Part shown: in pieces, positions 2,924-45,086 of the stretch | Layout: every line of letters begins with the position of its first letter | Position numbering within the stretch: the first letter of the stretch is position 1 | NCBI GenBank assembly: GCA_050011775.1 | Contig: JBEKIL010000003.1 | Coordinates: forward strand, 230,853 to 294,852 | Reading direction: 5' to 3' | Source: Bacteroidota bacterium | GTDB taxonomy: Bacteria > Bacteroidota > Ignavibacteria > UBA10030 > CAVZMI01 | DNA: 64,000 nt | Position numbers and translations under genes: made by a program | The notes under the pieces: model-generated | Database searches by the model: none | Seen by the model: the letters and a program-made list of their open reading frames with translations, nothing else | What the model was told of the DNA's origin: nothing

Positions 2924-2949
2924 CCTTGATCTTTACCTCTACCTTTCCC
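2918..2949. repeat. pyrimidine-rich intergenic motif copy (CCTCTACCT, reverse orientation of AGGTAGAGG)
   Basis: 'CCTTAACCTTGATCTTTACCTCTACCTTTCCC' directly before cysD. A related (AACCTT)x3 tract sits at 2365-2382 before cysC. Confidence 0.5.
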
Positions 2950-2955
2950 TGACAC

Positions 2956-3837
2956 ATGAGCCATTTAGACAGATTAGAAAGCATTTCAATCTATATCCTT
3001 CGTGAAGCTTATGCAACGTTTCACAACCTCGGTATGCTGTGGTCGATTGGTAAAGATAGCACGGTTCTCCTCTGGTTGGTCCGGAAAGCGTTTTTCGGAC
3101 ATGTACCGTTTACATTGATTCATATTGATACCAGTTTCAAAATTCCAGAGATGATCCGATACCGCGATAAACTTGTTGAAGAACTCGGATTAAATCTGAT
3201 TTTTGGAATCAACGAAGAAGCGTTGAGAAAAAAACAAACGTTCCCCGACGGTCATGTAGACCACCTTGCATGCTGTAAAATCCTGAAGACCGACGCTCTC
3301 ATCAATACAATTAATGGTAACTGGACGCGATATCGCTTTAACCATACAACAAAAAGGTACGAACCAGAACATCATGGCGAGTCGTTCGATGGAATCATAG
3401 CCGGAGCACGGGCCGACGAAGAGGGCTCCCGATCGAAAGAGCGCTATTTTTCGGCACGCGATGAAAAAAGCCAGTGGGATATCGCCAGCCAGCCGCCTGA
3501 ATTCTGGAATTTTTATAAAACCGACTTTACCCCGGGGACACATGTCCGCATCCATCCGCTTCTTGATTGGACAGAACTGAACATCTGGGAATATATCAAA
3601 CGTGAAAATATCCCAACGGTATCGTTGTATTATAATAAAGGGGATGGGAAAAGATATCGTTCGCTCGGTTGTTATCCATGCACATTCCCGATCGACTCCG
3701 ACTCCAGAACAGTCGATGAGATCATCGAAGAACTTAAAAGTGGAAAGCTGAAAAACGTCGCTGAGAGAAGCGGGAGAGCTCAGGATAAGGAAGATCAGGG
3801 AGGTTTGGAAAGTTTGCGGAGAGACGGTTATATGTGA
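2956..3837 (+). CDS. cysD: sulfate adenylyltransferase subunit 2 (PAPS reductase-like fold)
   Basis: '[19 protein letters not shown]...HIDT...[18 protein letters not shown]', '[21 protein letters not shown]', 'LGCYPCT' align with CysD. Carries a ~25-aa insertion relative to the E. coli enzyme. Confidence 0.85.
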
Positions 3838-3872
3838 GGAAAAGGAAGAGGAAAAGGTTAAGGAGAGAAAAT

Positions 3873-4229
3873 ATGTTCAGATCTTTTAAGGAAATGCCGG
3901 TTTGGCAGGAGGCGATGTCGATTGCGGAAGAAATATTCCGGATCACCGAAACACTTCCGAAGAAAGAAGATTATGGTTTAACTTCTCAACTTCGACGAGC
4001 AGCCTCGAGTATTTCTGCAAATATAGCGGAAGCCTATGGCCGCAAACATTCTTTGGATAAGAAAAATTTTTATTATATAGCTCGAAGCTCTTCAACAGAG
4101 ACGCAAAGTCATCTTGAATATGGAATGCGGGTGGGATATTTTGAGAAGGAGCAAATCGATGTTCTTGACTCTCGTCTGGACCAACTATATAATGATATAA
4201 ATAAAATTATAATAACATTAAGATCATAG
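3873..4229 (+). CDS. four-helix-bundle protein (23S rRNA IVS protein family), copy 2
   Basis: '[60 protein letters not shown]', about 70% identical to copy 1. The listed ORF start 3834 gives an unlikely basic leader; ATG 3873 aligns with copy 1. Confidence 0.8.
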
Positions 4230-4230
4230 T

Positions 4231-4256
4231 CTCTACCTTTACCTATACCTTTACCT
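4231..4256. repeat. pyrimidine-rich intergenic motif copy (CTCTACCTTTACCT x2)
   Basis: 'CTCTACCTTTACCTATACCTTTACCT' directly before the cysN GTG start. The purine-rich mirror 'GAGGAAAAGGAAGAGGAAAAGGTTAAGGAGAG' lies at 3836-3867. Confidence 0.5.
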
Positions 4257-4261
4257 GTATT

Positions 4262-6067
4262 GTGTCTGATAGCCATCTAAATATCATCGTCGCCGGCCAT
4301 GTCGATCATGGAAAGAGCACAATAATCGGCCGTCTTCTCGCTGATACCGGCTCTTTACCTGATGGGAAGCTCGAGCAGGTGAAGGCCTTGTGCGAGCGCA
4401 ACTCTAAGCCGTTCGAATATGCATTTCTGATCGATGCTCTTAAAGATGAGCGTTCGCAGGGCATTACCATCGATGCCGCGCGCGTGTTTTTCAAGACTGA
4501 AAAAAGGCATTACATTATTATCGACGCGCCGGGACATATCGAATTTTTAAAAAATATGGTGACCGGGGCATCGCGGGCCGGGGCAGCAATACTGGTGATT
4601 GATGCTTCGGTAGGCGTTCAGGAAAATTCACGTGGGCACAGCTATTTACTTTCATTGCTGGGGATACGTCAGATTGCTGTCGTTATTAATAAAATGGACA
4701 TCGCCGGATACCGGAAAGAGGTGTTCGATAAACATGTGAAAGAGTTTTCGCAATTCCTTGAAACGATAGGAATTTGCGCTGTGAATTTCATCCCGGTCAG
4801 CGGCTGCAGGGGAGATAACATAGCAGCGAGAAGTGCCGCGATGAAATGGTACACAGGGGCGACAGTGCTTGAGACTCTTGATACATTCGAGGAATCAAAA
4901 ACTCCGCCGGATCTTCCGTTCAGGTTCCCGGTTCAGGATGTTTATAAGTTTACGAAATATAAAGACACCCGCCGGATTATCGCCGGCACGGTTTCTTCAG
5001 GTTCAATCCGTCCGGATGACGAAATAGTCTTTTATCCTTCGGGGAAGAGGAGCAGAGTAGCGACCATCGAGGAATTCAATGCTACTCCGCCTCAGCTCGC
5101 CTGCACAGATTCGGCAACCGGTTTCACTCTCAAGGAACAAATCTATGTCACACGCGGTGAAATAGCTGCAAAGGTTGGAGAACCGCCTCCACAGATTTCG
5201 TCACGACTGCGCGTCAGTCTCTTCTGGATGGCAAGACGCCCGCTTTCCGTCGGGAAACAATATATTTTGAAATGCGGAACGGCAAGGACTCATATGCAAA
5301 TAGAAGAACTGATAAAAGTGATCGATGCTTCCGATCTTCATACATTGTCCGTTCAGAACATTGTTGAGCGGCACGAGGTTGCCGAGTGTGTTATGAAATT
5401 GGAGAAGGCGATTGCGTTTGATCGTGTAGGCGATATAGCAGGGACGGGGCGGTTCGTCGTCGTAGATGAGTATGAGATAGCCGGAGGTGGTATAATTCTC
5501 GATACACTTGAGGATCAACAAGCTTTTGTACGCGAGAAAGTTCTCACCCGTAATATCAAGTGGGAAAAAAGTACTATCCCGTCAGAAGTTCGCGCCGAGC
5601 GATTTAAACAGAAACCCGGTTTGATTCTTATAACGGGTAAAAAGGACAGCGGTAAAAAGCCGCTCGCACGGGCGCTGGAGAAAAAATTGCTCGATGGTGG
5701 ATATCATGCATATTTCCTCGGGATCGGGAATATATTATACGGAGTCGATGCAGATATCAAAGGAATTCATGATGACAGGTACGAGCATATCCGGAGGCTG
5801 GCTGAAGTCTCGAACATTCTTCTCGACACCGGTATAATACTTATTGTCACTGCCATTGAGCTTCAAGTAGACGAAATCGATCTGATTCGAATGACGTGTA
5901 ATGAATATGGAATAATGACAATCTGGGTCGGTGAAAGTGGAACTCCCGTAGTAGACTTTGATATCACAGTTTCAAGCAGCACGCCGATCGATGCAGCTGC
6001 TGAAAAAATAATCCATGATATTCAAAAGAGGTTATTCAGCGCAGGGAAAGGAAATTACAATAGCTGA
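4262..6067 (+). CDS. cysN: sulfate adenylyltransferase subunit 1 (GTPase) fused to a degenerate APS-kinase-like C-terminal domain (CysNC-type)
   Basis: GTG start. G1 motif '[19 protein letters not shown]', 'DAPGH', 'NKMD' GTPase motifs. C-terminal ~160 aa resembles APS kinase ('[27 protein letters not shown]') but the P-loop S/T and the DGD motif are not conserved ('GIGN'). Confidence 0.85.
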
Positions 6068-7976: not shown

Positions 7977-9656
7977 ATGAATAGAATCTTTCTATCCTTA
8001 AGAAATCCTTCTTGGAAAGAGCTTCTCTGCTTGTCTTTAATACTCAATATACTGCTTTTTGGAATATTTTTTTTGTGGATGAATCCCGCCTTTGAAACGG
8101 TGGACGATGTGGGAATGATGTTGACATCTTCAGGGGTGAGAACCGGGGAACCGAGTGAGTATCTTACATTTCCCAGCGTCGTTATTGGAAAAATATTAAA
8201 ACATCTCTATTTGCAGGTTCCACGCATTAACTGGTATCCCGTCTATCTATATTCGATTCATTTTTTATCAATGCTCGTCATTTTATATGCTATTTTAAAA
8301 CTGAGATTTAGCTGGTCACGAATATTTCAGTATGTTGTTCTATTTATTTTTTTCGAGTGCTCGCTTTTGATGCGATTACAATTTACATCGACCGCTATAG
8401 TAATAGCGATAGCCGGTTTCTGCCTGTTCCTGACATCGCTGAGTTTAAAAGACAAAGAAGTCTGGTTTTACCTGGGAGTATCAATCGTAATGATGGTGAC
8501 GGCGGGATTAATCAGGGAAAAGGTTTTTTACTATTTTTTATTGTTGATTGCTCCCTTAGTATTGTTGAAATTCTTCGAGGCAAAGAAGCTCAGGATACCG
8601 ATCTTCTTTGCTTTAACATTATCTCTCTTTTTTATATTCGTGCAATACAATAGTTCCTACTATTCCGGCGATCCGCTATGGAAAGAATTTATTGCGTATA
8701 ACAAAATTAGGGGTCAATTACATCTTTATCCTAAACTTGCTTACAATGAGCACACGAAACCGACGTTCAATAAAATCGGGTGGAGCGAAAATGATTTCTT
8801 GATGTTCCAAAATGTGTTTTTCCCCGACAAAAAAGTATATTCCAGTGAAAATCTGACATTTATTAATGAAAGCCTAAAAAATCAACGAGGCCTCAAAGAA
8901 ACACTCACTGTGCTTTTATATATAATATATCAAAATGTTTTACTCGTAGCTGTTAGTTTCATCTTTTTGTCTTTATCACTTCAATGGGCCGATAAAAGTG
9001 AAAGGAAATTTATTTATTGTATACTTGTTACAATCATCGTGATGTTTATCTATCTTTCGTTCGCCGCCCGGCTACCGTTTCGTATTTTTATGCCGACGTT
9101 ATTATTTTTTAATACTATGTTTCTTTTTGTGCATAAGGATTTTCAATTTTCTGTTTTTAAGGAAGGAAAGCCTACCAAAAAGCGTATGAGCATTGCGGCA
9201 CTATTGTTGGTAGTATTTTTATTATTGCCATTGCACCTATTAATTTTATATAATCAGGGGAAAGCTAACCAGGAGAAGTATCTATCTATGAAGAATGGGC
9301 TGCAATTATTATCTGCTGGAAAAGATAAATTGTATATAGTATGGGGATCGGACGCAATGAACCTTCAAGATACTTCGCCGTTTTCAGATCTAAAAGAATT
9401 TTCCAATTTGAACTTTGTGTTTGCAGGGAGATTACACGATCCCTTCAATAAAAGAATACTTGCAAATTTCGGAGTTGAAAATGTTTACCTCTCCTTCACC
9501 AGGGAGACGAATATATTTCTTATTATGTACAATGATCTAATGTACAAGGATATGTTGAGCAAGTTTATAATGGAGCATTTCCAAAAAAGTGTCGAGTTTA
9601 TAGTTGTCGATAAGTATAAGAACATGGGCATATATAAAATGGCTGTAGCCAATTAG
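7977..9656 (+). CDS. large polytopic membrane protein, possible GT-C-type glycosyltransferase or polymerase (family unassigned)
   Basis: 559 aa, >12 hydrophobic segments, acidic 'ETVDDVGMM' in the first loop, very AT-rich gene. No confident family assignment. Confidence 0.4.
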   Translation: MNRIFLSLRNPSWKELLCLSLILNILLFGIFFLWMNPAFETVDDVGMMLTSSGVRTGEPSEYLTFPSVVIGKILKHLYLQVPRINWYPVYLYSIHFLSMLVILYAILKLRFSWSRIFQYVVLFIFFECSLLMRLQFTSTAIVIAIAGFCLFLTSLSLKDKEVWFYLGVSIVMMVTAGLIREKVFYYFLLLIAPLVLLKFFEAKKLRIPIFFALTLSLFFIFVQYNSSYYSGDPLWKEFIAYNKIRGQLHLYPKLAYNEHTKPTFNKIGWSENDFLMFQNVFFPDKKVYSSENLTFINESLKNQRGLKETLTVLLYIIYQNVLLVAVSFIFLSLSLQWADKSERKFIYCILVTIIVMFIYLSFAARLPFRIFMPTLLFFNTMFLFVHKDFQFSVFKEGKPTKKRMSIAALLLVVFLLLPLHLLILYNQGKANQEKYLSMKNGLQLLSAGKDKLYIVWGSDAMNLQDTSPFSDLKEFSNLNFVFAGRLHDPFNKRILANFGVENVYLSFTRETNIFLIMYNDLMYKDMLSKFIMEHFQKSVEFIVVDKYKNMGIYKMAVAN

Positions 9657-10913: not shown

Positions 10914-12119
10914 ATGAAAATAAAGAACACATTTTTACAATTTATGAAAAAGGAAAAATTGAACTCGTATTTGAGTTTAATCACTAAGAAAAGTACTATC
11001 ACATTCTCTATTATCACATTATTAGCGTTTTGTATTTTTTTTAATCAAGCGAGTTGCAGGATAATTCGTTCTGACCTGGGTGCTCATATCAAGTTCATGA
11101 AACAACATTTTGAACAAGGAACGAGACTCGATCATCCATTTTTTCACTATGTTACTTACTATATATCACAGCTATTTTCCTTTAATCTGGTGGCCACGGC
11201 AATTGTTATCTTAACATTATCTGTCTTAATTAGTGCGATTATAATTTTTTTAATATTAAATGAATCTCTTCGGAATGACTATTCCGAAAATATTATTTTA
11301 TTTTTTACTTTTTGTCTGATGATCGTTTCGGCTATTTATTTGCCCTTTTTTAATAAAAATATTTACCTCGGACAAAGTTCACCGAATGTATGGCATAATC
11401 CAACCACGATAGTCGTAAAACCTTTTGCATTTTTATCGATTCTTTTATTCATCTATTTGTTGAATATAGAGAATACCAAGAAATTCATAATATTTTCTAT
11501 TCTAGAAGCGGCTTTGATTGCTATAAGTATATCTGTCAAACCAAATTTTTTTATGTCATTTTTCCCAGCAGCATATATTTTTTTATTGTTAAGGGTTAAT
11601 CTTTTCAAAAAGTATTTTTGGAAGTTTACCTTGATCTCGATACCGGCGTTGGCCGTTCTCGTATGGGAATATTTTATGAGATTCGGAGAGGGAGGAGAAA
11701 GCAAGATTATAATTGATTTTTTAGGAGTCTGGAGCCATTATACTCCAAATGTTTTGGTATCGTTGCTATTACTGATAGCTTTTCCAATTTCTGTGCTTAT
11801 TTTTTATTTTAAAAAGGTTATCAAGAATGATTATTTAGTTTTAAGTTGGCTGGTATTTTTCATTGCGTTGATTCAATACTCTATATTTGCCGAAGCAGGT
11901 CGGCACCATTATCACGGAAATTTTGGCTGGGGGAGGCAGATAATACTTCCAATGGTATTTACTTTTTCAGTAGTAGAATTTATGAAATTGATCAAGGAAC
12001 CACATGGAAACAAATGGGGCAAATATAAAAAATATTTTGTTTCGCTCTGTTTTTCCTTGCATGTAATTTCAGGTCTATGTTATTTGGTAATTATGTACAT
12101 CACGAGGAGTTTCCATTAA
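10914..12119 (+). CDS. polytopic membrane protein, possible O-antigen polymerase or GT-C-like (unassigned)
   Basis: 401 aa, ~11 hydrophobic segments, AT-rich; no recognisable soluble domain. Confidence 0.4.
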   Translation: MKIKNTFLQFMKKEKLNSYLSLITKKSTITFSIITLLAFCIFFNQASCRIIRSDLGAHIKFMKQHFEQGTRLDHPFFHYVTYYISQLFSFNLVATAIVILTLSVLISAIIIFLILNESLRNDYSENIILFFTFCLMIVSAIYLPFFNKNIYLGQSSPNVWHNPTTIVVKPFAFLSILLFIYLLNIENTKKFIIFSILEAALIAISISVKPNFFMSFFPAAYIFLLLRVNLFKKYFWKFTLISIPALAVLVWEYFMRFGEGGESKIIIDFLGVWSHYTPNVLVSLLLLIAFPISVLIFYFKKVIKNDYLVLSWLVFFIALIQYSIFAEAGRHHYHGNFGWGRQIILPMVFTFSVVEFMKLIKEPHGNKWGKYKKYFVSLCFSLHVISGLCYLVIMYITRSFH

Positions 12120-24220: not shown

Positions 24221-24943
24221 ATGATCGTTCTGGACGACATAACAAAGATATTTAAGATACCGCATGAGCGGAAGAGAACACTCTATCATCGGTTGGTTTC
24301 AATCGTGAAAAGACGATATGATTTTGAACCGCTCCATGCACTCCGCAATATTTCACTCTCTATAGCCGACGGAGAATTCATCGGAATCATCGGGAGAAAT
24401 GGATCCGGGAAGTCGACGCTTCTCAAAATAATTTCACGGATTTATTGCCCGAGCAGCGGAAAAGTCCATGTGAAAGGTGATGTATTTCCGATGTTGGAGC
24501 TGGGCATCGGTTTTCAACCGGAATTCTCATGTCGCGAGAATGTCTTTCTTCAGGGTGTGGTGCTCGGTTTCACGCGAAAAGAAATCGTGAAACGGTTTGA
24601 CGAGATAATTGCGTATGCAGAATTGGAACGATTTGTCGACGCCAAATTGGGCACACTGTCTTCGGGAATGCTTATGAGACTGGGCTTTTCGATCGCCGCG
24701 CAGTCTGATGCTTCAATTTTTCTTGTCGATGAGGCTTTTGCCGTCGGCGATCGGGCGTTCGGTGCTAAATGCGAACAGAAGTTCAGGCAATTCAAATCGG
24801 AAGGAAAAACGGTCTTACTTGTTAGTCACGATCTTCACACAGTTCAGCATTTTTGCTCACGGGTGATTGTTCTTCAAGACGGACAAATCGTCAATGAAGG
24901 AGATCCGCAAGCAATGATCGCCTGGTACAGCGCAAAATTATGA
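24221..24943 (+). CDS. wzt: polysaccharide ABC exporter ATP-binding protein (Wzt/TagH-like, short form without C-terminal binding domain), pair 1
   Basis: Walker A 'GIIGRNGSGKSTLLKII', signature 'LSSGMLMRLGFSIAA', Walker B 'IFLVDEAFAVGD'; 240 aa. Confidence 0.85.
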   Translation: MIVLDDITKIFKIPHERKRTLYHRLVSIVKRRYDFEPLHALRNISLSIADGEFIGIIGRNGSGKSTLLKIISRIYCPSSGKVHVKGDVFPMLELGIGFQPEFSCRENVFLQGVVLGFTRKEIVKRFDEIIAYAELERFVDAKLGTLSSGMLMRLGFSIAAQSDASIFLVDEAFAVGDRAFGAKCEQKFRQFKSEGKTVLLVSHDLHTVQHFCSRVIVLQDGQIVNEGDPQAMIAWYSAKL

Positions 24944-34775: not shown

Positions 34776-35324
34776 GTGCGAAAGCTGGATCGAGCAATAC
34801 AGCTGTTGCGTATAAAAAAAGCTATTCAATTCATACCTGACGGAGCATCTGTCCTGGATATAGGTTGCATGGAAGGCGAATTGTTTAAGTATCTTGGTGA
34901 TCGCATTGGATCGGGTATTGGTGTGGATCCGAGACTTCCGTTCCCTGTTTATACACCTCACTATGAACTTATCCCCGGACGATGGCCCGAAGATGTACCT
35001 CCGGCTATGGCGTTCGACGTGGTAACCCTCCTTGCGGTCATCGAGCACTTGCCCGAAGATATACTTGCAATCTTCAATTCGCGGTGTGCTCGGATGATGA
35101 AACCGGGAGGTCGATTGATCCTCACGGTTCCTTCCCCATTTGTTGATGTTTTGTTGCGTGTCCTTATGACTTTGAGGCTCATGGATGCTATAGCGTTTGA
35201 AGAACATCATGGTTTTGTTCCGGAAAATATTTTTGAATTTATTGGTCCGCCATATTTTCGTCTATATCATCATGAACGTTTTGAATTTGGGTTTAATAAT
35301 ATATTTGTATTCGCAAGAATCTGA
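34776..35324 (+). CDS. class I SAM-dependent methyltransferase (small)
   Basis: 'VLDIGCMEGELFKYLGDRIGSGIGVDP', 'VVTLLAVIEHLPEDILAIF'. GTG 34776 with GGGA 11 nt upstream; the listed ORF start 34653 overlaps the previous gene. Confidence 0.65.
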   Translation: MRKLDRAIQLLRIKKAIQFIPDGASVLDIGCMEGELFKYLGDRIGSGIGVDPRLPFPVYTPHYELIPGRWPEDVPPAMAFDVVTLLAVIEHLPEDILAIFNSRCARMMKPGGRLILTVPSPFVDVLLRVLMTLRLMDAIAFEEHHGFVPENIFEFIGPPYFRLYHHERFEFGFNNIFVFARI

Positions 35325-35398
35325 ATTCTAAATTGTAAATTCTTTGAAAACGAGTTTACCGCAGCGCTTTGAATTCTAATCACTAATCGATTTAAATC

Positions 35399-35464
35399 AT
35401 GATTGTTCTTCAAGACGGACAAATTGCCAATGAAGGAAATGCTGAAGAGATGATTTCCTGGTAA
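35399..35464 (+). pseudogene. orphan 3' fragment of a wzt-like ABC ATPase gene
   Basis: 'MIVLQDGQIANEGNAEEMISW*' versus the Wzt-1 C-terminus 'VIVLQDGQIVNEGDPQAMIAWYSAKL'. DNA 'TGATTGTTCTTCAAGACGGACAAAT' (25 nt) is identical to 24864-24888. Confidence 0.5.
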
Positions 35465-35465
35465 A

Positions 35466-35729
35466 GTGGAAGGAGCTGAATGCCAACAATGGGAGATGAT
35501 TTTTATGGGCCATTTTGAAAAAATCTGCTCCTCTTTGTTTGATGGATTACTCGATAGAGGTTCCCATGGCCCGCTCTGGCTTAGAGAACCGGAGATTGCA
35601 AAAATAGTACAGGATGCACTTCTTTTTAGAGATAGGAAAGTGTTTACTCTTATCGCACATAGTATAATGCCGAACCATGTGCACATGGTATTTGAGCCGA
35701 CGAATGTAGGTCGACTCGCCCGCCTTTAG
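35466..35729 (+). mobile_element. truncated IS200/IS605-type (REP-associated Y1/HuH) transposase fragment
   Basis: 'KVFTLIAHSIMPNHVHMVFEPT' carries the HuH motif (H-V-H-M-V) of the Y1 transposase family. The ORF ends 13 codons later, before any catalytic Tyr region, and runs into a palindromic cluster. Confidence 0.55.
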
Positions 35730-35810
35730 GCGAGGTCTCGTTCCGCGATAACGGAACGGACTGAGTCGACCTCGACCAAAGAAGGTCGAGACGGCGTCTC
35801 GACCTACATT
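35703..35810. repeat. REP/BIME-like nested inverted-repeat cluster
   Basis: Outer 12-bp IR 'AATGTAGGTCGA' (35703-35714) / 'TCGACCTACATT' (35799-35810). Inner hairpins: 'CGCCTTTAGGCG', 'CGTTCCG-CGATAA-CGGAACG', 'CTCGACC-AAAGAA-GGTCGAG', 'GAGACGGCGTCTC'. Confidence 0.7.
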
Positions 35811-36063
35811 ACTTTCATATAGCATCTACGCATCATGAAGTTCGCCGGAATGAGGTCCTGGTTTAAATCAGTCTAAATATTAGTGCTTTAATATTAATTA
35901 AGAAATCATTATATTTATAAAAGAATTTACGACTTGTAAATTCTTTATTAAAATCTATTTTAGTAATATACAAGGATGCCGGGTACTGAAGATACTCCAC
36001 TGTAAGAGTATAACTGCCCTGAATTCCGATCAGCAATAATGGTTTTTATAGTAAGGATGGAAA

Positions 36064-38862
36064 ATGTACAGTCTTGCCGCCTTCATTCATATTGTCGTGC
36101 TTTTAGTGATTACGTGGTATTCCTTACGATCATACGATGAATGCTGGCTCCATAAGAGTTTCGCCGTACTGATTCTTATTTGGTCAAATTTAGTTATTAC
36201 GGCTTTGTTTCTGAGCCTCTTCTCAGCACTCGGTTCTCTACCCCTTTATTTCTTCGTCTCAATTATTCTTGCGATTGTAACGGCTCTCGTAGTGCCGCAT
36301 TTTACAAGATCAATAGCTGCCAATTATTCCTGTACGATAATGCAGGGGAAAAGTGCCCGGTCATGGTTAATGACAACGTCATTGATTCTTCTGCTCATTT
36401 GCTTTATTTGTTCAAGTGTCATTTGCTTGTTATACTATCCAAACAACTGGGATACTGAAGCGTATCGCTTTGGACGGGTATTTCTTTATTTAGGACAGGG
36501 AAACTTGAACCATATCCCGTGTGGAGATTCAAGACTCTCGATGTATCCATTTAACGGCACACTTGCCTATCTGTACTTTGCAGAATATGCACTCGATGGA
36601 AGATGGTTCAATTTTCTCAGCCTGATATTTTGGAGTTTCGGTGTTGCCGGTTGTTTTGCATTCGCACGCGATTTGGGTGCTTCGAAAACAGGTTCATTGA
36701 TTGCGGCGGCAATTTTTGGGACAACCCCGATCGTTGCAACCGTGGCGGCTTCGACAAACGACGAAATTATCGCAGCCGTACCGCTTCTTCTTGGGCTCAT
36801 ATTTCTTTTTCGCTGGTGGAAGTCCCGGAATCGATTCGATTCGATCGTCAGCGGGCTTGCCCTGGGCTTGTGTGCAGGAACAAAACTACACATCGTTTTC
36901 TTCATACCGATCATAGCTGTAGTGGCAATAATTCTCCTTCTTATCCTTATCCGAAAGAAGATGGTTCGTACCGTCATCCGTGAGCGCGGTAAAGGTGCAT
37001 TGGTCATCATAATAATCGCTATCTTCCTTTTTGTACCGTTTATGATTGTCAACATATCACAGGGAGGTTTTACATTTTTCAGTTCCAAATGGATCAATCC
37101 TATGTTAAATAAGCCCTTCGATGCAGGTATGGCACTCAAAAACACAACGCTTTTTTCATCTCAATTATTTCTCAGCCCGATTCCCGATCTGATTATTTCA
37201 CCGGATGACGACTTTAAACGTAAGTGTTATCAAAATTTTAATGACTTTTTCAACAAATTGGTTTTTACTGATGTGAATAACGATAAGAATTATTCATTCG
37301 CTCATTATCACTTCAGGGGTGTCGCAAATCCGGATGGTTTTTACTCGTTTGAACAAACCTTCTGGCTTGGTTTCATTCCTTTCCTTTTTGTATACGGACT
37401 GATCACCCTTTATCGAAACAGGAAATATGTTACTTTTGTGCCTTTTCTTCTTATAATATTTTTCTTCTCATGGCACTTTGCCCGCAGTATGCTGACAAAA
37501 TATATTGAAACGACGGGAGTATATTATGTATATCCATTTACAATTGCGGCAATGGCGATTGCAGTGATCTGGGATCTTCGTGAACATCAGGGAAGAATTG
37601 GTCGAAAAATCACTCTGATTGGTTTTTCCATAATTATTCTCAGTAATGGAATATTTCTTTCGAACTTGTTCCTATATAATATTCAAAGAAATTTAAGTCG
37701 GCTTTATCAATCACATTTTATTCCGCAGCAGAAATATATGTCAAGAGAAGTCGTCAAGGCGATGCAGGAATCACCAAAAGTGAATTTTATTTATACAAGG
37801 AGGGAATTTCCTTACTTCCAGTTTGCAGCTCGAAGTCCGGAAACACGTTTCATTACAGAGACACAACTTGATCCCCAAAAAGTCGATATCCTGAATCTTA
37901 TGATTTATCCTTTCAGAAGCGAGTACGGTCACATACCTATTAAAGTACCCCATCCTCAAAATAATTTATTGACACTCATGGGCTATCTGGAAAATGTTTA
38001 CGGAAGAGAAGGAATTTTTGGATTTGGTGGAAATAGCCGTGAGTATAATACCTATGGAACGGACTATAACCTTTTACATTATAAACCAATTTATGATGAA
38101 AACTCCTCGATCCCTAAAGCACTGGTTTTCTCTCCAAAGTTGGAGGTGCCGCTCGATTCTTCATACGAATTTCGATTGCTGGTTGTAGAGCCTTCCGGTT
38201 TTTATCTTAATCTGACAGAATGGATCGGGAAGGAGCGTATGGGGATGCGAATTCCTCTTCCTTTGATTCCTGAGGGGTCGAAGTTGAATGTACAAACGCG
38301 GCTTCGGTCTGCGCCTCTGGATATTACTGAAACTCTGTTTCCGCTTGATCGAGGTATTGAGTGGGATATATCGCAAAAAAGTATAAAGCCGACTGAGTTA
38401 GATATCGGTAAAAGGAATATACTGGAGGGCGTGGTCTTTCAATGTGATTTGATCGAAAATGTCGTACAGAATGGTTTCTCAGTGAATGGAATGCGGGAAC
38501 CGGAGGGCCCGTATGAAAAATGGCAATTGCCACGTGTCCGCTGGGCGAACAATCCTGTTGTAACGCTTACGGTTTCGGATGAACTGTCAAGGTCGATAAA
38601 TACTCTTTCATTGATATTCAGCATTAGGCCGCAAATCCGGCCGTCGTCTTCATTTTCCGTTCGTCTCAATAATAAGATCATAAAGAAGTATGAGCTGAAT
38701 GATCCGACCACATGGGTTGATGATGTAATCGAATTGCATCTTTTGAAAGGATTGAATAAGATTGAACTCATCAGCCGGAGTAAATCCAAGGGGGCTGCAC
38801 CATCGGAAAATCTTCACATGTTATTCCGTTCTCTTATGGTAACGGGTAAAAGAAAACACTAG
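36064..38862 (+). CDS. large membrane protein, paralog A: N-terminal polytopic GT-C-like domain plus ~400-aa C-terminal soluble domain
   Basis: 932 aa. Shares 'PNNWDTEAY', 'YLGQG', 'PFN', 'ND..IAAVPLL.G', 'GL.AG.KL' and C-terminal 'PEGPYEKWQLPRVRWAN...IRPQIRP' with the ORFs at 48226 and 53548. Confidence 0.5.
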   Translation: MYSLAAFIHIVVLLVITWYSLRSYDECWLHKSFAVLILIWSNLVITALFLSLFSALGSLPLYFFVSIILAIVTALVVPHFTRSIAANYSCTIMQGKSARSWLMTTSLILLLICFICSSVICLLYYPNNWDTEAYRFGRVFLYLGQGNLNHIPCGDSRLSMYPFNGTLAYLYFAEYALDGRWFNFLSLIFWSFGVAGCFAFARDLGASKTGSLIAAAIFGTTPIVATVAASTNDEIIAAVPLLLGLIFLFRWWKSRNRFDSIVSGLALGLCAGTKLHIVFFIPIIAVVAIILLLILIRKKMVRTVIRERGKGALVIIIIAIFLFVPFMIVNISQGGFTFFSSKWINPMLNKPFDAGMALKNTTLFSSQLFLSPIPDLIISPDDDFKRKCYQNFNDFFNKLVFTDVNNDKNYSFAHYHFRGVANPDGFYSFEQTFWLGFIPFLFVYGLITLYRNRKYVTFVPFLLIIFFFSWHFARSMLTKYIETTGVYYVYPFTIAAMAIAVIWDLREHQGRIGRKITLIGFSIIILSNGIFLSNLFLYNIQRNLSRLYQSHFIPQQKYMSREVVKAMQESPKVNFIYTRREFPYFQFAARSPETRFITETQLDPQKVDILNLMIYPFRSEYGHIPIKVPHPQNNLLTLMGYLENVYGREGIFGFGGNSREYNTYGTDYNLLHYKPIYDENSSIPKALVFSPKLEVPLDSSYEFRLLVVEPSGFYLNLTEWIGKERMGMRIPLPLIPEGSKLNVQTRLRSAPLDITETLFPLDRGIEWDISQKSIKPTELDIGKRNILEGVVFQCDLIENVVQNGFSVNGMREPEGPYEKWQLPRVRWANNPVVTLTVSDELSRSINTLSLIFSIRPQIRPSSSFSVRLNNKIIKKYELNDPTTWVDDVIELHLLKGLNKIELISRSKSKGAAPSENLHMLFRSLMVTGKRKH

Positions 38863-38936: not shown

Positions 38937-39665
38937 TTGCATATGAATATTCCGACACTATTTCACATCACGCATTGGAAAGCTGGATCGCAATGGGTTG
39001 CAAAAGTACTCAAGGAGCTTTTCCCTGATGAAATCATTCCACCAAGAATTGCGGCTGCCCAGGTTCTCCAGATGCCGATACAAGAACACAAAATCTATTT
39101 GTGTGTCTATATTGCGAAAGGACAATGGGACCGAATCCAACTTCCAAAAGAGACACGACGGTTTCTTATTATTCGCGATCTCCGGGATACACTGGTCTCG
39201 GCATATTTCTCAATGCGATATAGCCATCCCATCATGATAAATCAAATGGAAGAATGGCGTAATTTTTTAAGGACAAATAGTTTGCGTGATGGCATGGTGT
39301 ATTTAATGGAAAATTGGCTTCCGGACAGCGCGAATATACAGCGATCCTGGTTGAAAGCAGGGGAGAAATTTTTCCGTTTTGAAGATATTTTAAAAAGCGA
39401 TATTTTTTACTTCGAGAAAATACTTATTGACCATTGTCAGTTACCCATTGAAAAAGCAATGCTCCGGGATGTAGTTCAACGAAATAGATTCATCACGTTA
39501 AGTAAAGGCCGGAATCCGGGTGCAGAAGATCGGTTGTCGCATTATCGAAAAGGACTTCCGGGCGATTGGCAGAACTATTTCAGTGAAGAAACAAAAAAGG
39601 AATTCAAGAAACGTTTCAATGATGTTCTCAATCTGACCGGGTATGTGGACAACGATACCTGGTGA
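38937..39665 (+). CDS. putative sulfotransferase (Sulfotransfer_1-like)
   Basis: 'HITHWKAGSQWV' resembles 5'-PSB 'PKSGTTWL'; 'RDLRDTLVSAYF' resembles 3'-PB 'R.P.D..VS.Y'; 242 aa. Confidence 0.55.
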   Translation: MHMNIPTLFHITHWKAGSQWVAKVLKELFPDEIIPPRIAAAQVLQMPIQEHKIYLCVYIAKGQWDRIQLPKETRRFLIIRDLRDTLVSAYFSMRYSHPIMINQMEEWRNFLRTNSLRDGMVYLMENWLPDSANIQRSWLKAGEKFFRFEDILKSDIFYFEKILIDHCQLPIEKAMLRDVVQRNRFITLSKGRNPGAEDRLSHYRKGLPGDWQNYFSEETKKEFKKRFNDVLNLTGYVDNDTW

Positions 39666-39693
39666 AAAGTATTTCGATAAAGATAATGGGAAG

Positions 39694-40488
39694 ATGACTA
39701 AACTATTCGTATGTTTCCGTGAGTTATGGAATAGGCGCGAATTATTATTTTCGCTTACAAAGCGGGATATTAAATCGCGATATCAACAGACTTTTTTTGG
39801 AATGGGCTGGTCTTTGTTTCAGCCGGTAATGCAGGCTGTAGTCTATACAGTTGCCTTCTCGTTGATACTTAAAGTGCCGATCCGCGAAGGAATACCGTAC
39901 ATGAATTTTGTGTTCTGTAATCTCACACTCTGGACCTATTTTGCATCAACAACCCTCAGCGCAATGAACAGCATACGTATGAATTCCGCTTTGATAACAC
40001 GGGTAGCGTTCCCGCGTGAAATCATTCCTTTTTCGACCATTCTGTCAGGACTATTCGATTTCATAATTATGTTTATCGTCCTGGTTATTCTAAACGCTTT
40101 TGTCGGCTTTTATCCAAATATCCGATTTCTGTATTTGCCCACGATTATCTTAATTGAAATTCTTTTCATTCTGAATATTTCATTAGTATTAAGTGTGATT
40201 TCGATTGTACGTCGTGATATTACCCATGTCGTGAATTATTTTATTATGCTTTATATGTTTATATCGCCGGTCTTTTTTCCGTTCTCGGCACTACCGGCTG
40301 AAATACAGCGATATTATTTTCTTAATCCGATGGGGACTCTTCTTGAAGGATTTAAGAATATTATATTTCTTGACAAAGAACCCCGCTGGTTTGCATTGAT
40401 GATGGTGATCATAATACTGATCGTTCTTTTTTTCCCCTGTTATATTTTTTTCAAAAAAGCTGAACGTTCCTTCACGGATGTACTATGA
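39694..40488 (+). CDS. wzm: ABC-2 type polysaccharide export permease (Wzm family), pair 2
   Basis: 'KRDIKSRYQQTFFGMGWSLFQPVMQAVVYTVAFSLIL', 6 TM. ATG 39694 avoids overlap with the upstream gene. Confidence 0.8.
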   Translation: MTKLFVCFRELWNRRELLFSLTKRDIKSRYQQTFFGMGWSLFQPVMQAVVYTVAFSLILKVPIREGIPYMNFVFCNLTLWTYFASTTLSAMNSIRMNSALITRVAFPREIIPFSTILSGLFDFIIMFIVLVILNAFVGFYPNIRFLYLPTIILIEILFILNISLVLSVISIVRRDITHVVNYFIMLYMFISPVFFPFSALPAEIQRYYFLNPMGTLLEGFKNIIFLDKEPRWFALMMVIIILIVLFFPCYIFFKKAERSFTDVL

Positions 40489-41885
40489 TTGCACTCCGTT
40501 TCAATAATGTCACGAAAATTTATGACCTGCAGGCGGGTCGGGACACTTTTCTCACGACTCTCAGGTTCACTCTGGGCAATGTTAAGCGGAATGATTTCTT
40601 CCATGCCGTTCGTGATATAAATATTGAAATAAAAAAAGGCGAAGCAGTCGGTATCATCGGACGTAATGGAGCGGGGAAAAGTACACTGCTGAAACTTGCG
40701 GTCGGGATTACCTATCCGACATATGGATCGGTTGAAGTGAACGGTTCGATTGCCGCACTCATAGGACTTGGGGCAGGATTCAATCCCGATTTCACAGGTC
40801 GGGAAAATATTTTCCTTAATGCTTCGCTATTGGGCGTTCCAAGGAAGAGAGTGGAGGAACGTTTTTCCGAGATTGTCGCCTTTGCAGAATTAGAAGATTT
40901 TATCGATGTTCCGGTTAAGCGTTACTCTTCGGGGATGTACGCGCGGCTCGGATTTGCCATCGCGACTCACGTCGATGCCGATATCATTGTCATCGATGAA
41001 GTACTGGCTGTAGGAGACATATATTTTCAACAAAAATGCTTTTTATTTTTAGAATCGCTTCTTCAAAAAGGGAAAACTCTTCTATTTGTGAGTCATGATG
41101 TAGGCAGTGTGCGTGAACTTTGCAATTCTGTAATATTGCTTGAGAAGGGCGTGAATATATTTCATGGAGATCCAAGAGAAGGTGTAAATAGATACCTGCT
41201 ATTACAACAGAAAAAGGATACTGCAAAGGATTCCGAGAATGAAATTCGCGTGGAATCGAAGACTAGTACTGCATCAAATGCGGATATTACGGTTGATAAT
41301 AAATCGCAGGAAGGGAAGAGGAAATTCCTGCCGCGCCAATGGTCCGACATCGATGCACTGGATCTTTCTTCCTCTGCTGTTCTTATTGGTGAGAGAGATG
41401 TTCATTGGAAGGGCGTCGCGATCTATGATAAGGACGGAAGTCGCTGCAATTCTTTTTCCATGGGGGATGAAGCGTGGTTCTATTATGAGTTTGAGGTTCT
41501 GCGCGATATACTTACTCCGTTTGCCGGCGTTGCGATTTATGATAGGAAAGGAATTCTTGTTCACGGAAAGACGACATATCAGCATGGAATACAGCCGTGC
41601 CGTACAGTTGGAAAAAACGCGACGATCCGGGTTATTCAATCGATAAAGTTTCCATTGTCACCCGATACGTATACTTTTGAGCTATGGCTCAGCATGATGG
41701 AGCCGGAGACTCATGAACAGCTTCAACATCTTACAGCAGAACAAATTCAGGCAGGTGTTACCAAACTGATGCATATAAGCAGAGCAGGTTCGATCATTAT
41801 TACCCCTAATCCGAACAATATTGCTATCAATAATTTTGGTATAGTCGACTTGCCGGGGAGTGGAGATCTGACAATACTCCCCTGA
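40485..41885 (+). CDS. wzt: polysaccharide ABC exporter ATP-binding protein with C-terminal Wzt_C-like carbohydrate-binding domain, pair 2
   Basis: Walker A 'GIIGRNGAGKSTLLKL', signature 'YSSGMYARLGFAIAT', 'IIVIDEVLAVGD'. Extra ~200-aa C-terminal beta-rich domain ('HWKGVAIYDKDG...VAIYDRKGILVHG'). Confidence 0.85.
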   Translation: MIALRFNNVTKIYDLQAGRDTFLTTLRFTLGNVKRNDFFHAVRDINIEIKKGEAVGIIGRNGAGKSTLLKLAVGITYPTYGSVEVNGSIAALIGLGAGFNPDFTGRENIFLNASLLGVPRKRVEERFSEIVAFAELEDFIDVPVKRYSSGMYARLGFAIATHVDADIIVIDEVLAVGDIYFQQKCFLFLESLLQKGKTLLFVSHDVGSVRELCNSVILLEKGVNIFHGDPREGVNRYLLLQQKKDTAKDSENEIRVESKTSTASNADITVDNKSQEGKRKFLPRQWSDIDALDLSSSAVLIGERDVHWKGVAIYDKDGSRCNSFSMGDEAWFYYEFEVLRDILTPFAGVAIYDRKGILVHGKTTYQHGIQPCRTVGKNATIRVIQSIKFPLSPDTYTFELWLSMMEPETHEQLQHLTAEQIQAGVTKLMHISRAGSIIITPNPNNIAINNFGIVDLPGSGDLTILP

Positions 41886-41933
41886 TAAGTTTTTCCTAAA
41901 AAGAATCTGATAATATTATCATAGAAGAGTTAT

Positions 41934-44900
41934 ATGATCACGAAAGCCGGAAAAAATCTTGCCTATATTTATTCAACTCCCCGCTCTGGCTCGACATTGC
42001 TTGCGGCGATGCTCGGCGGTCACGATGACGTCTATGTCCCTCCCGAACCATGGTTTCTACTTCTGCTTCATTCTCTTCTCTCTTCCGATGATGCGATTGT
42101 TGCACATTATGACGAAAATCTGGCACGCCGCGCATTTCGGGAATTGTCTCCGGAGAATATCATCACAGAAGCCTCGCAAAACTATGCATTGACGGTATAT
42201 AATAGTCTGTTGGAGAAAAACAAAAAAAAATATTTTGTCGATAAAACTCCCCGATATTACCATGTCCTTGAATGGATCGATGCGCTATTCCCTGAAGCCA
42301 AAAAAATACTCTTAGTCCGAAATCCACTCGATGTCTTTGCATCATATAAAGATGTGTGGGGAATCGAAGTAGAGGAAATGATCGGTGAACAGCTCTCTCC
42401 ATTTTCATTCGATGCCACGATAGCATATTTCAGATTTCAGGATTTTTATAAGCGATCGCATACAAATATGATCCGGATTTCCTATGAGAATCTTGTGATT
42501 GATCCCCATACCGTGATGCACGGGGTATGCGGTTTTTTAGGATTGGCATTTAACGAGAGGATGATATCCTATGGAGAGAATAAAGAACTATTGACACGGT
42601 ACGCAAATTCCAGCATGGGCGATCGAAAGGTGCTTTCCGAAATAACTCCGCATCGAAAATCATGCGGAAAATGGAAAACAATCCTGACCCCCTTAGAAAC
42701 TCAGAAGATTGTGACGACGCTTGGGACAAGGATATTCGAAGAGAACGGTTATAAGACCGAATTACAGGAAGCTCTGTCATTTGCTTCGCTGCAATATGAG
42801 AAGGTCGACCGCGAAGGAAGAAAGGAAGAACTCTTTAAACAGTATCAGACCTATGTCGAGACGCGGCTTTCATCATCTGCAGCTCTTTCCAATGTGGCTC
42901 TCACAAGGAAGAATGAAGAGCTCTTAAAATATATAACTACAATAGAGAAGGATCGGCAGGATCGACTCGAGGCAATCCTACGTTATCAGGAAAAACTGGA
43001 TAACTCTCATAATGCAATTGAGCAAAAGGAAATACGAAATCAACAACTTCTTGAGGAATCACTCAGGATTCAGGATCAACTGGTAGACTCTCGTAATGCA
43101 ATTAAGCAAAAAGAAGTACGAATTCGACAACTTCTGGAGGAATCACGTGGGTTTCAGAATCAACTGGCAGACTCTCGTGATGCAATTGGGCAAAAAGAAA
43201 TACGAATTCAACAACTTATGGCGGGAACGTACGGGTTTCAACATCAACTGACGGAACTCCGGGATGTCATAGCACAAATCGAAAAAGACAGACAGGCCAG
43301 ACTCGATTCGATACTCTATTACCAAAAAGAACTGGCGGAAGTACAGCGGAGGAATCAGGAACTTATCGATACGATTTCTTCGATTGAAAACGACAGGCGG
43401 GCCAGACTTGAGTCGATACTCTATTACCAAACAGTATTGTCGGATTTACAACATCGGTACGATGTGATCGAAAAAGATCATGCAAATCTTTTGATGTTAG
43501 TCGAAACATTGAATGGTCATATTGCCGAACTCGGGACATTGGAAACATCGTTACGCCGGTTCATTGAGTTGTCGTTACGCAGCATCGGTCTCTATGAATT
43601 TATTTTACGCCACCGAAAAAAGCTTAACCGGGTTTTTCTGTTCGTATTGCACGCGGGGGCCGGATTAGCTTCTGTTATCCGCAAATTCCATCGCAAAAGG
43701 GAGCTTGGTGTAGTGAAAGCAGACACCGCTCCTTTACAAAAACAGACTCTTAAAGAAACATTAAACTCACCCGAGGTCAATGCTTATGTCAATTCACGGT
43801 TAATTCAGGGTGATCTGGAAGACAGTGTAATACACCATTTCCTCGATAATAATTCTTCGTTTTCATCCGTAATCTGTCTCATGCCGGACCCAAATGATCT
43901 TCAATTACTGATTTTTCTTAAAGAACTCGGGAAATCTGTATTTGTTCTTCATTCTCCATCCGAAAATTTAAGTCTCATTAAACCGAATATTTCTTTTACA
44001 GCATGCATCGCCGATGAATGGTTCATGAAATATGGACGGTTGGAACTTTCAAAATATGATGTTCTTTTCATAGGAAAGAATTGTTCAGGTTCGTATTTCC
44101 GACTATTAAAAAATTATGTATCACCTCGAACAGCGATAATTCTTCATAATACCAGTTTTTCGGAAGAGTTATTTTTACTTGAGGGTAGGATTAAAGTGAC
44201 AATCGGCAGCTTTGTTTCTCTGTCTCCTTGCTCCGATTCAAAGGTATTATTCAAGGTATGCGAAGAACGCCGAACAATCGATAATGCACAATGGCCGTGG
44301 AAGCAGTTCAAGTCTGAAATCCCATCGAACATGCCCTCCGGCAGGCCCTGGCCGAGAATATCGGTCGTTACGGCCACACTCAATCAGGGCGATTTCCTTG
44401 AAGAGACAATTCGCTCGGTGCTGCTGCAACGTTATCCGAACCTTGAGTACATTCTCCTCGATGGGGGTTCCACCGATACAACACCGGAGATTCTCAACCG
44501 GTATAAAAATGAGTTCGCAGTGTGTCTAAGTCAAAAGGATAAAGGTCAGGCCGATGCGTTGAACAGGGGTTTCAATCATGCAACCGGAGAAATTCTTGCA
44601 TGGCTGAATAGCGACGACCGATATCTTCCCAACACATTTCTTGATGTTGCGCTGGCATATGATTTGTATGCCTGTGATATGGTTGCAGGGGGATGTGCTC
44701 TTGTCAATGATAACGAAGCAATTCCCTGGAGTGTACATCACACTTTATTACCTCTGGGGGAAAAAGTCCGGCTTCCACTCGATAATCTTCTCGATATCGA
44801 TGGTTCCTGGCAAAAAGGCGATTTCTTTTATCAACCGGAGGTGTTCTGGAGCAGGAACATCTGGGAAAAATCCGGGAGACGAATTGATAGTACTCTCCAT

Positions 44901-45086
44901 TACAGCATGGATTATGAGCTCTGGGTAAGAATGGCGATCGCTGAAGCATCCATTGTTCATATTCCCGAGACGCTTGCGTATTTTCGAATGCATCAACAGC
45001 AAAAAACAAGCGGTAAGGATTTACCGTTTCTTCCGGAGTTACGAAAGTTGAATAAAAGGCTTCTTAAAGAATTGAGAAAAAAATAA
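41934..45086 (+). CDS. multidomain protein: N-terminal sulfotransferase, central tandem coiled-coil repeats, C-terminal GT2 glycosyltransferase (candidate chain-length regulator and terminator)
   Basis: N-terminal 'IYSTPRSGSTLLAAMLGG' (5'-PSB) and 'DKTPRYYHVLEWIDALFPEAKKILLVRNPLDVFAS'. Residues ~335-520 are heptad-like 20-aa repeats ('DSRNAIKQKEVRIRQLLEESRGFQNQLA' x3; 'IEKDRQARLDSILYYQKEL' x3). C-terminal 'ISVVTATLNQGDFLEETIRSVLLQRYPNLEYILLDGGSTDTTPEIL', 'LNSDDRY' (GT2). Confidence 0.7.
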   Translation: MITKAGKNLAYIYSTPRSGSTLLAAMLGGHDDVYVPPEPWFLLLLHSLLSSDDAIVAHYDENLARRAFRELSPENIITEASQNYALTVYNSLLEKNKKKYFVDKTPRYYHVLEWIDALFPEAKKILLVRNPLDVFASYKDVWGIEVEEMIGEQLSPFSFDATIAYFRFQDFYKRSHTNMIRISYENLVIDPHTVMHGVCGFLGLAFNERMISYGENKELLTRYANSSMGDRKVLSEITPHRKSCGKWKTILTPLETQKIVTTLGTRIFEENGYKTELQEALSFASLQYEKVDREGRKEELFKQYQTYVETRLSSSAALSNVALTRKNEELLKYITTIEKDRQDRLEAILRYQEKLDNSHNAIEQKEIRNQQLLEESLRIQDQLVDSRNAIKQKEVRIRQLLEESRGFQNQLADSRDAIGQKEIRIQQLMAGTYGFQHQLTELRDVIAQIEKDRQARLDSILYYQKELAEVQRRNQELIDTISSIENDRRARLESILYYQTVLSDLQHRYDVIEKDHANLLMLVETLNGHIAELGTLETSLRRFIELSLRSIGLYEFILRHRKKLNRVFLFVLHAGAGLASVIRKFHRKRELGVVKADTAPLQKQTLKETLNSPEVNAYVNSRLIQGDLEDSVIHHFLDNNSSFSSVICLMPDPNDLQLLIFLKELGKSVFVLHSPSENLSLIKPNISFTACIADEWFMKYGRLELSKYDVLFIGKNCSGSYFRLLKNYVSPRTAIILHNTSFSEELFLLEGRIKVTIGSFVSLSPCSDSKVLFKVCEERRTIDNAQWPWKQFKSEIPSNMPSGRPWPRISVVTATLNQGDFLEETIRSVLLQRYPNLEYILLDGGSTDTTPEILNRYKNEFAVCLSQKDKGQADALNRGFNHATGEILAWLNSDDRYLPNTFLDVALAYDLYACDMVAGGCALVNDNEAIPWSVHHTLLPLGEKVRLPLDNLLDIDGSWQKGDFFYQPEVFWSRNIWEKSGRRIDSTLHYSMDYELWVRMAIAEASIVHIPETLAYFRMHQQQKTSGKDLPFLPELRKLNKRLLKELRKK
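42936..43494 (+). repeat. in-frame ~60-nt tandem DNA repeats encoding the coiled-coil segment of the 41934 protein
   Basis: For example 'GACTCTCGTAATGCAATTAAGCAAAAAGAAGTACGAATTCGACAACTTCTGGAGGAATCA' versus 'GACTCTCGTGATGCAATTGGGCAAAAAGAAATACGAATTCAACAACTTATGGCGGGAACG'. Confidence 0.7.

Follow-up and report, generated by a model that had tools for sequence, protein, structure and literature searches.

Does the spacer that separates two groups of genes in a polysaccharide (wzm/wzt-type) cluster of a Bacteroidota metagenome-assembled genome (MAG) hold an active mobile element, or the decayed remnants of genes that once stood there? This spacer of 739 bp occupies positions 35325-36063 of the 64-kb stretch of DNA that was analyzed (the window), between the stop codon of the last methyltransferase gene (35324) and the start of a gene encoding a 932-aa membrane protein (36064). 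The first-pass annotation of this DNA had described it as a scar in which remnants of wzt, the gene of an ABC-transporter ATPase, and of a transposase stand side by side, and our data agree with that description. With a probability of about 0.85, the spacer, part of this cluster, is a patchwork of gene remnants, inherited and without function. From left to right it would comprise the last 66 nt of wzt, the middle part of a gene for a REP-associated tyrosine transposase (RAYT, also TnpA_REP; REP, repetitive extragenic palindrome) and an AT-rich region upstream of the next gene.

Remnants of a RAYT gene and of wzt

The open reading frame (ORF) at 35466-35729 had been annotated as a truncated Y1/HuH transposase of RAYT type, an identification that was borne out. 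The ORF encodes MPNHVHMV, in which translation and alignment placed the HuH motif (His-Val-His, 35676-35684, + strand) on the beta-3 strand, as in RAYT/TnpA_REP proteins (Pfam PF01797, NCBIfam NF047646), and it ends at a TAG codon (35727-35729) before any catalytic Tyr. A tblastn comparison of intact relatives with the spacer yielded one continuous frame from 35514/35538 to 35807 (E 2e-28 to 4e-30), and the homology continued weakly in the same frame to about 35858. The truncation is therefore larger than had been proposed: the 3' cut is real, but the 5' end is cut too and the relic outruns the ORF. According to tblastn, the homolog search and alignment, the pseudogene extends on the + strand from 35466 to 35858, corresponds approximately to residues 45-160 of about 215, and carries in-frame stops at 35727-35729 and 35820-35822. 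The N-terminal part is missing from the window (YYRRHLPHYQP...FVTFRL in the relatives, with the RRHLPHYQP region). Also missing, with homology stopping by about 35858, are the C-terminal WQ guide-recognition region and the catalytic Tyr in the Y..NP helix, motifs which the relatives keep as FWQHESYDH (WQ) and YVLMNPV (Y..NP). As WQ and the catalytic Tyr are absent, the window copy is considered a relic and not a functional member of the family, and it very probably has no transposase function now.

The family was identified through the relatives. Besides the ORF's own entry, a 'hypothetical protein' from a Bacteroidota MAG, a protein search with the ORF returned a single relative, P0002, with 66% identity (E 5.5e-20). 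P0002 led in turn to 315 relatives, the best 120 of which were mostly 205-255 aa long, many of them with PF01797 and several named 'REP element-mobilizing transposase RayT' by their sources. Four full-length relatives were tested and all exceeded the Pfam Y1_Tnp threshold; they scored 70-79 bits with the NCBIfam model REP_Tyr_transpos against 17 bits (E 0.005-0.007) with the IS200 model. In addition, the profile of the relatives matched E. coli TnpArep (PDB 4ER8, E 6.5e-8). From these comparisons, the ORF is a RAYT/TnpA_REP pseudogene cut at both ends. The 74-aa 'hypothetical protein' annotated publicly at this place is thus a fragment of a RAYT pseudogene, with the GC-rich hairpins described below as part of the same gene; beyond annotation, the importance of this result is slight.

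The 5' edge of the relic abuts, within 1-2 nt, the stop codon of a 66-nt ORF (35399-35464, + strand) that represents the last 21 codons plus stop of a wzt gene. When it was compared with 24863-24928 of wzt-1 (gene at 24221-24943), 54/66 nt were identical in the same frame, with the stop near that of wzt-1; the core of the match (35402-35436 against 24866-24900) reached 33/35 bases, for which the chance expectation is 0. The ORF is thus a real wzt 3' remnant, as had been annotated. The claim that its first 25 nt are identical to wzt-1 needs a small correction: the identical run of 25 nt is real but starts at the second base, the first being A against G. Upstream of 35399 no similarity to wzt-1 was found, and the remnant gave no Pfam match and contains neither Walker A/B nor the signature motif of the nucleotide-binding domain of Wzt. 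It was kept in a sister genome (locus L110, see below). Both wzt-1 and its wzm partner are genuine ABC-2/ABC_tran genes, and positions 39643-41885 hold a second wzm/wzt pair, this one with a Wzt_C domain. That a wzt was lost at this very site is plausible; a transporter gene of wzt type has probably been lost from this multi-module sulfated-glycan cluster.

The hairpin cluster and its counterparts in intact RAYT genes

The first-pass annotation had also reported GC-rich, REP-like hairpins bounded by a 12-bp inverted repeat (35703-35714/35799-35810), and had taken them for a separate cluster overlapping the end of the ORF. The inverted repeat is exact, and extends to 18 nt at 89% complementarity. 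The segment 35703-35810 folds with -60.5 kcal/mol (z = -6.6), and 0/200 shuffles were as stable. It presents the heads of GT[AG]G-type REPs, GTAGGTCGA... at 35706 and ...TCGACCTAC at 35807, that is, a GTAG head at 35706 and a CTAC foot at 35804-35807. Hairpin 1 is formed by arms at 35708-35717 and 35763-35772, and hairpin 2 spans 35783-35805.

Translation in the frame of the ORF gave ...PTNVGRLARL*ARSRSAITERTESTSTKEGRDGVSTYITFI*, and homology to transposases (...VGRL...GRDGVSTYI) was maintained across 35703-35810. At exactly this place the relatives, named here by the loci (L) in which they lie, have VGRLAESTSSKNGRDSVSTYIV (L004), VGRLTESTTNRDGRD...GVSTYIV (L006) and DVGRNDIPTYN (L002). In L004 these residues are encoded by the perfect GTAG-headed palindromes GTAGGTCGACTC-GCT-GAGTCGACC ... 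GGTCGAGAC-AGC-GTCTCGACCTAC, and in L002 by the perfect GTAG-headed palindrome GTAGGTCGGAAT-GAC-ATTCCGACCTAC. Altogether, six intact genes (L002, L004, L006, L011, L060 and L083) derive VGR...STY from GTAGGTCG...CGACCTAC palindromes in the same position and frame. Consequently, the cluster (35703-35810, + strand) is highly likely to be an in-frame, intragenic 'double-foot' REP doublet of the RAYT gene and not a separate element at the ORF end, a reading drawn from its fold, the same in-frame design in intact genes, covariation and the published description of such genes (PMC6006769). The hairpins were rightly called REP-like: they have GTAG heads, and hairpins of these types are scattered through related Ignavibacteria/Bacteroidota genomes and also lie beside intact RAYT genes. 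However, as a separate cluster they were misplaced, since the doublet is typical of the clade and has been further disrupted here.

The disruption consists of a 42-nt nested insert (35720-35761, + strand, boundaries ±1 nt) that comparison with L004 located in the 3-nt loop of hairpin 1. The window doublet is therefore of the L004 type plus this insert, which adds two small hairpins and the TAG at 35727-35729. No second copy of the insert was found in the window or in the fetched loci, and no further copy of its inner hairpin, CGTTCCG-N6-CGGAACG, in the window or in 191 loci. A regular-expression search for REP hairpins split by long loop inserts gave L001 as the sole other case.

This locus (L001 484-535, JGI 3300049914 contig) holds the P0002 gene, so that the RAYT of the closest relative is broken inside its intragenic REP too: its hairpin GTAGGTCGGAAT...ATTCCGACCTAC has 24 extra loop nt with an in-frame TGA, after which the C-terminal half resumes in the same frame, in parallel to the window insert. 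Just 3' of P0003, an intact RAYT gene of the sister genome (L002 3714-3760), there is a REP-like hairpin, TAGGTCGATTCGCC[TGCCCGCCGTTCGCTGGCGGAC]TGAACCGAT, which by eye appears to have an inner hairpin in its loop, as window hairpin 1 does, and is a possible loop insert. The loops of REP hairpins may be recurrent insertion sites, and one possibility is that they are preferred by further palindromes, which would be one route for inactivating RAYT genes that carry their own REP.

The placement of REPs in this gene family was also examined by statistics. Across 75 RAYT loci, the density of perfect hairpins (8 bp or longer) was 4.97/kb in the loop following the HuH motif, against 0.19/kb in the rest of the ORFs and 0.94/kb in the flanks, the flank hairpins being mostly related REPs beside the gene (L114, L125, L113, L143, L163, L011). 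The intragenic module has 27 nt (GTAG, 8 nt, a 3-nt loop, 8 nt and CTAC) and ends on a Tyr codon, which recurs at this position in most loci having Tyr there. Pairing was complete (12/12) in six loci with five different stem sequences, and the distribution of paired positions was bimodal. In an alignment of 13 modules 90% of cells pair, a percentage inflated by the fact that modules were selected partly for pairing, which leaves the variety of stems unaffected; slid controls pair at 32-40%. Compensatory changes were present in 7/12 pairs and the covariation score was 0.61 against 0.19 in shuffles, 0/500 of which were as high. The 13 modules contain a single G-U pair, which argues for a palindrome at the DNA level.

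The idea that an in-frame REP inside a RAYT gene is a new feature was considered and rejected, as the literature already contains it. Quentin, Siguier, Chandler and Fichant (2018) gave it as a unique trait of TnpA_REP subclass 2.4, which is RAYT group 4 of Bertels et al. (2017): the tnpAREP genes contain REPs, placed between their HuH and Tyr motifs, with the frame intact (PMC6006769). This subclass, abundant in Cyanobacteria and Bacteroidetes, has the motifs NH[IFV]H, WQ and YIxNNP and 'double foot' REPs with 5' GT[AG]G and 3' C[TC]AC (PMC6006769). Our statistics are an independent confirmation of this known feature, and the window copy is in all probability a decayed member of subclass 2.4. 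It has the in-frame GTAG...CTAC REP inside the gene, despite the TAG brought by the nested insert, and the NHVH motif, whereas WQ and Y(V/I)LxNP (Y[VI]LxNP as a pattern) are found in the closest intact relatives alone; the hosts are of Bacteroidetes type, and the relatives add gene-flanking REPs to the intragenic ones. The window copy differs from the subclass in being a pseudogene which has lost about 45 N-terminal and about 55 C-terminal residues and has two in-frame stops, in the extra 42-nt hairpin insert in its REP loop, and in having neither flanking REPs nor dispersed copies in 64 kb.

With E. coli TnpA_REP and the REPtron (PDB 4ER8) it shares the Y1 HuH fold family, according to the profile match of its relatives. 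As in E. coli REP/BIME sequences, its palindromes are GC-rich and GTAG-headed, of the kind recognized as single-stranded DNA hairpins, and its inverted doublet is comparable to REPINs; however, E. coli REPs are extragenic, bulged and of high copy number, whereas here the head is on both strands and the REPs are intragenic and locally rare. TnpA of IS200/IS605 belongs to the same HuH/Tyr single-strand transposase superfamily (Pfam PF01797), but at this locus no complete element is delimited by subterminal hairpin ends, multiple copies are absent, the tnpA is truncated, and the best family match of the intact relatives is REP_Tyr_transpos, the IS200 model being far weaker. Finally, REPs inside other genes, as well as Rickettsia palindromic elements (RPE), are documented (Di Nocera et al., 2013, PMC3733652). 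They are likewise in-frame palindromic repeats of protein-coding genes, tolerated in surface loops; here, in contrast, the gene that hosts the repeat encodes its cognate transposase, and the place of insertion is constant in the clade.

Age and origin of the scar

An earlier metagenome scan with the 932-aa membrane protein had found no syntenic relatives. The sister genome came from a protein search, which gave a counterpart of the membrane protein with 93% identity on a 524-kb contig of another assembly (L110). The gene order of L110 is the same on both sides of the spacer, and the spacer aligns throughout; the alignment takes in the wzt remnant, the two RAYT stubs and the AT-rich part. A single segment of 274 bp (35537-35810), containing the RAYT core and the whole REP doublet, is absent from the sister according to the alignment; its junction shows 2-nt microhomology, and on the right it ends 3 nt beyond the CTAC foot. 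At the nucleotide level the two genomes are 94-97% identical in the four flanking genes and 89.9% identical at third codon positions of the adjacent membrane-protein gene, against 87.4% in the left part of the relic and 92.4% in the right part, so the divergence of the relic is about neutral. As the junctions are common to both genomes, nothing recent happened here. The first-pass annotation had regarded the scar as a mobile one and named the comparison of related genomes as its check. That comparison, with shared junctions, no extra gene, a further loss of 274 bp and neutral divergence, indicates an old fixed feature instead. Judged from these alignments, the locus is most probably an old, inherited, decaying and inert scar rather than an active element. 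An intact RAYT (P0003), with its own intragenic REP and flanking REPs, is present on the sister contig about 100 kb away.

The following course would account for these data. The site would once have held both an intact RAYT gene with flanking REPs and a wzt of the short type, which probably had a wzm partner. In this clade the loop that follows the HuH strand contains an in-frame GTAG...CTAC REP, either as one copy or as an inverted doublet, and that of the window is a doublet. Before the two genomes split, at least three deletions would then have left 66 nt of wzt directly fused to the middle of RAYT. Later, the 42-nt nested hairpin insert with its stop codon would have entered the window doublet, and further deletions would have occurred. 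In the window the three pieces of the relic follow one another in order and share one frame, so the 274-bp difference is most simply read as a later deletion on the sister's side, possibly favoured by the palindrome at its edge. On this course, the locus would be a clear natural example of decay in a REP-carrying RAYT of subclass 2.4, by truncation at both ends, a stop-bearing insert in the REP loop and then loss of the whole core in the sister lineage.

Several observations weigh against this interpretation. The ORF fragment alone falls below model thresholds (Pfam Y1_Tnp, 14.5 bits against 23, E 0.039; NCBIfam REP_Tyr_transpos, 18.5 bits against a cut-off of 80), and RAYT homology is weak in the left stub (35466-35537) and in the right stub (35811-35858). 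As the fragment is below the thresholds of the hidden Markov models, its descent is shown instead by tblastn, with E 4e-30 to relatives that do pass the Pfam threshold. That the 274-bp change is a loss in the sister, not a gain in the window, is argued from the uninterrupted frame of the three pieces. The ancestral state is a reconstruction, since none of the relatives found has an intact wzt or RAYT at this place. In addition, the course outlined above does not account for three copies of a 13-nt repeat around the relic, with a parallel A/G difference from the sister, described below.

The annotation had further proposed that a REP/RAYT or IS200-type insertion deleted or replaced a third wzm/wzt unit and so joined two glycan modules. 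The lost wzt in this proposal is plausible, as stated above, but the causal role given to the transposase is unlikely. REP palindromes are rearrangement hot spots, the wzt 3' end lies within 1-2 nt of the RAYT fragment and the edge of the sister's deletion is 3 nt away from the REP foot, all of which would suit such a role. GTAG REPs also flank an exopolysaccharide (EPS) cluster in Thauera (PMC3733652). However, no ancestral breakpoint lies at a REP foot, and a RAYT gene cut at both ends looks like a victim of deletions rather than an evident agent. RAYTs are typically single-copy, with no sign of self-copying (PMC5581495), the junctions are, as noted, those of both genomes, and no intact third wzm/wzt was present in any relative seen.

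Equally doubtful is that the hairpins were kept for the host, as a terminator or a stabilizer of mRNA 3' ends in the gap that separates the methyltransferase block from the following transcription unit. Hairpin 2 obtained a terminator-like score on both strands, and roles in transcription termination and mRNA stabilization are hypothesized for REPs (PMC3733652). The genes around the spacer are all on one strand, and the AT-rich stretch 3' of the hairpins contains 5 promoter-like matches, a number not clearly above chance (3.1 ± 1.8 in shuffles). Against this, the T-tails are poor (ACATTACTTT), the relic diverges neutrally, and the sister deleted the whole cluster with its gene order unchanged; having lost hairpin 2, it shows that any terminator role is dispensable. 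Under decay of a RAYT gene, hairpin 2 would at most be an incidental transcript-end or stabilizer structure.

The annotation had noted as well that an exact 13-mer, TTGTAAATTCTTT, brackets the segment. Both direct copies are exact: the left one (35333-35345, + strand) starts 8 nt past the methyltransferase stop codon, and the right one is at 35934-35946. A third copy, inverted and with one mismatch (35920-35932), had been missed; with the right-hand copy it forms an AT-rich palindrome (35920-35946) with an 11-bp stem and a 5-nt spacer, about 120 nt upstream of 36064. With up to 1 mismatch, these three are the sole matches in 64 kb, where about 0.4 would be expected, and 1/100 shuffles reaches 3. 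In the sister the copies are at about 9542-9553 and at 9870-9882 of L110, the left one reading TTGTGAATTC-TT, and 10 nt are common to the two. Both direct copies differ between the window and the sister by the same A/G change (GTAAATTC vs GTGAATTC) while the inverted copy is unchanged; this parallel change could be due to gene conversion, shared constraint or coincidence. The bracketing itself thus holds, but hardly as the trace of a Y1 transposase: it is well established that such transposases (IS200/IS605) make no target duplications on insertion, so the 13-mers would not be their footprint.

The repeats might instead be a recombination or regulatory site, with the block of about 600 bp holding the wzt and RAYT fragments as the residue of a segment captured between two copies. 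The occurrence of two direct copies, both exact, and an inverted one at this place alone in the 64 kb, the shared A/G change, and a right-hand palindrome whose 5-nt spacer recalls a recombinase or repressor site would fit this explanation; however, no recombinase gene was found nearby and no third genome with an empty site, the sister copies are partly degraded, with their 10 nt in common, and AT-rich sequence inflates chance repeats. We therefore regard it as improbable, and slightly more so in the specific form in which the site serves the exchange of glycan-gene blocks and the wzt-RAYT patch is what remains of a captured cassette. If that form were true, the 13-mer site would be a place where such blocks are exchanged.

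The weakest alternative, an independent extragenic REP/BIME array inserted beside or into an already truncated transposase gene, can draw on the same hairpin types outside RAYT genes in related genomes, on a second doublet just past the L011 RAYT stop codon and on nested inserts showing that palindromes receive insertions, but it is very improbable because the cluster agrees in position, frame and flanking residues (...MVFEPTN-VGRL...GVSTY-I...) with the doublets inside the intact L004, L006 and L011 genes and weak homology extends 3' in the same frame.

Gene setting and related hairpins in other genomes

The cluster in which the RAYT and wzt remnants lie (window 2387-6067, 38937-45086 and 36064-63116) encodes, probably for sulfate activation, an APS kinase, a GTPase/APS-kinase fusion protein and a protein of the PAPS-reductase family. 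Several sulfotransferases, the two wzm/wzt pairs and three ORFs of about 900 aa (36064, 48163 and 53548) are encoded in the same cluster; the two of these ORFs that were searched, at 36064 (below the curated cutoff) and 53548, both matched PMT_2. This content suggests a multi-module locus for a sulfated and methylated glycan. An Rfam scan of 35200-36200 at a permissive threshold gave chance-level matches alone (best E 0.4-0.7). A tRNA-like gene as the source of the multi-hairpin fold was ruled out, since the tRNA/tmRNA scan found none.

Further GTAGGTCG hairpins were found neither in the 64-kb window nor in about 7.6 kb past its left end, and about 0.5 kb past the right end showed no further REPs. 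Inside the ORF at 10914-12119 there is a perfect 8-bp hairpin, TTCGGAATGACTATTCCGAA (11269-11288), which resembles the core of the sister-type REP GGTCGGAATGACATTCCGACC and lacks GTAG/CTAC feet; either chance or decay of an intragenic REP could account for it.

A pattern scan of 185,579 genomes identified window-type hairpins in MAGs of Ignavibacteria/Bacteroidota; of its 102 matches, many from genomes of high GC content seem to be due to chance or to belong to unrelated REP families, and were left unused. Window-type hairpins occur inside the RAYT genes of L011, L060, L083 and L087, and they are also dispersed, for example on five contigs of JACPVN01 and three of JAPUKJ01, with exact matches outside RAYT genes on 2-5 contigs per genome. 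In L011 (2938-3300, MAG JAZDJN01) an intact RAYT with an intragenic doublet is followed, about 40 nt past its stop codon, by a second, near-identical doublet.

The intact RAYT P0008 (L004, on the 306-kb contig k141_109332 of ENA ERZ27250059) has the same type of REP doublet as the window relic. Another contig of the same metagenome sample (L193, ENA ERZ27250059 k141_214204) encodes a 178-aa protein identical to that of window 2387-2923, in the gene order of the left end of the window, and P0008 may be a live copy in the same organism.

Many tandem doublets were observed in JALWAP01, an Anaerolineae (Chloroflexi) MAG (L013 5800-6180; L037, L055, L057, L077, L078, L089 and L097). They have the form GTAGGTCGAGTC...GACTCGACC ... 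GGGCGAGCC...GGCTCGCC-CTAC, constitute a high-copy, REPIN/BIME-like family, and their first hairpin is nearly the Bacteroidota one.

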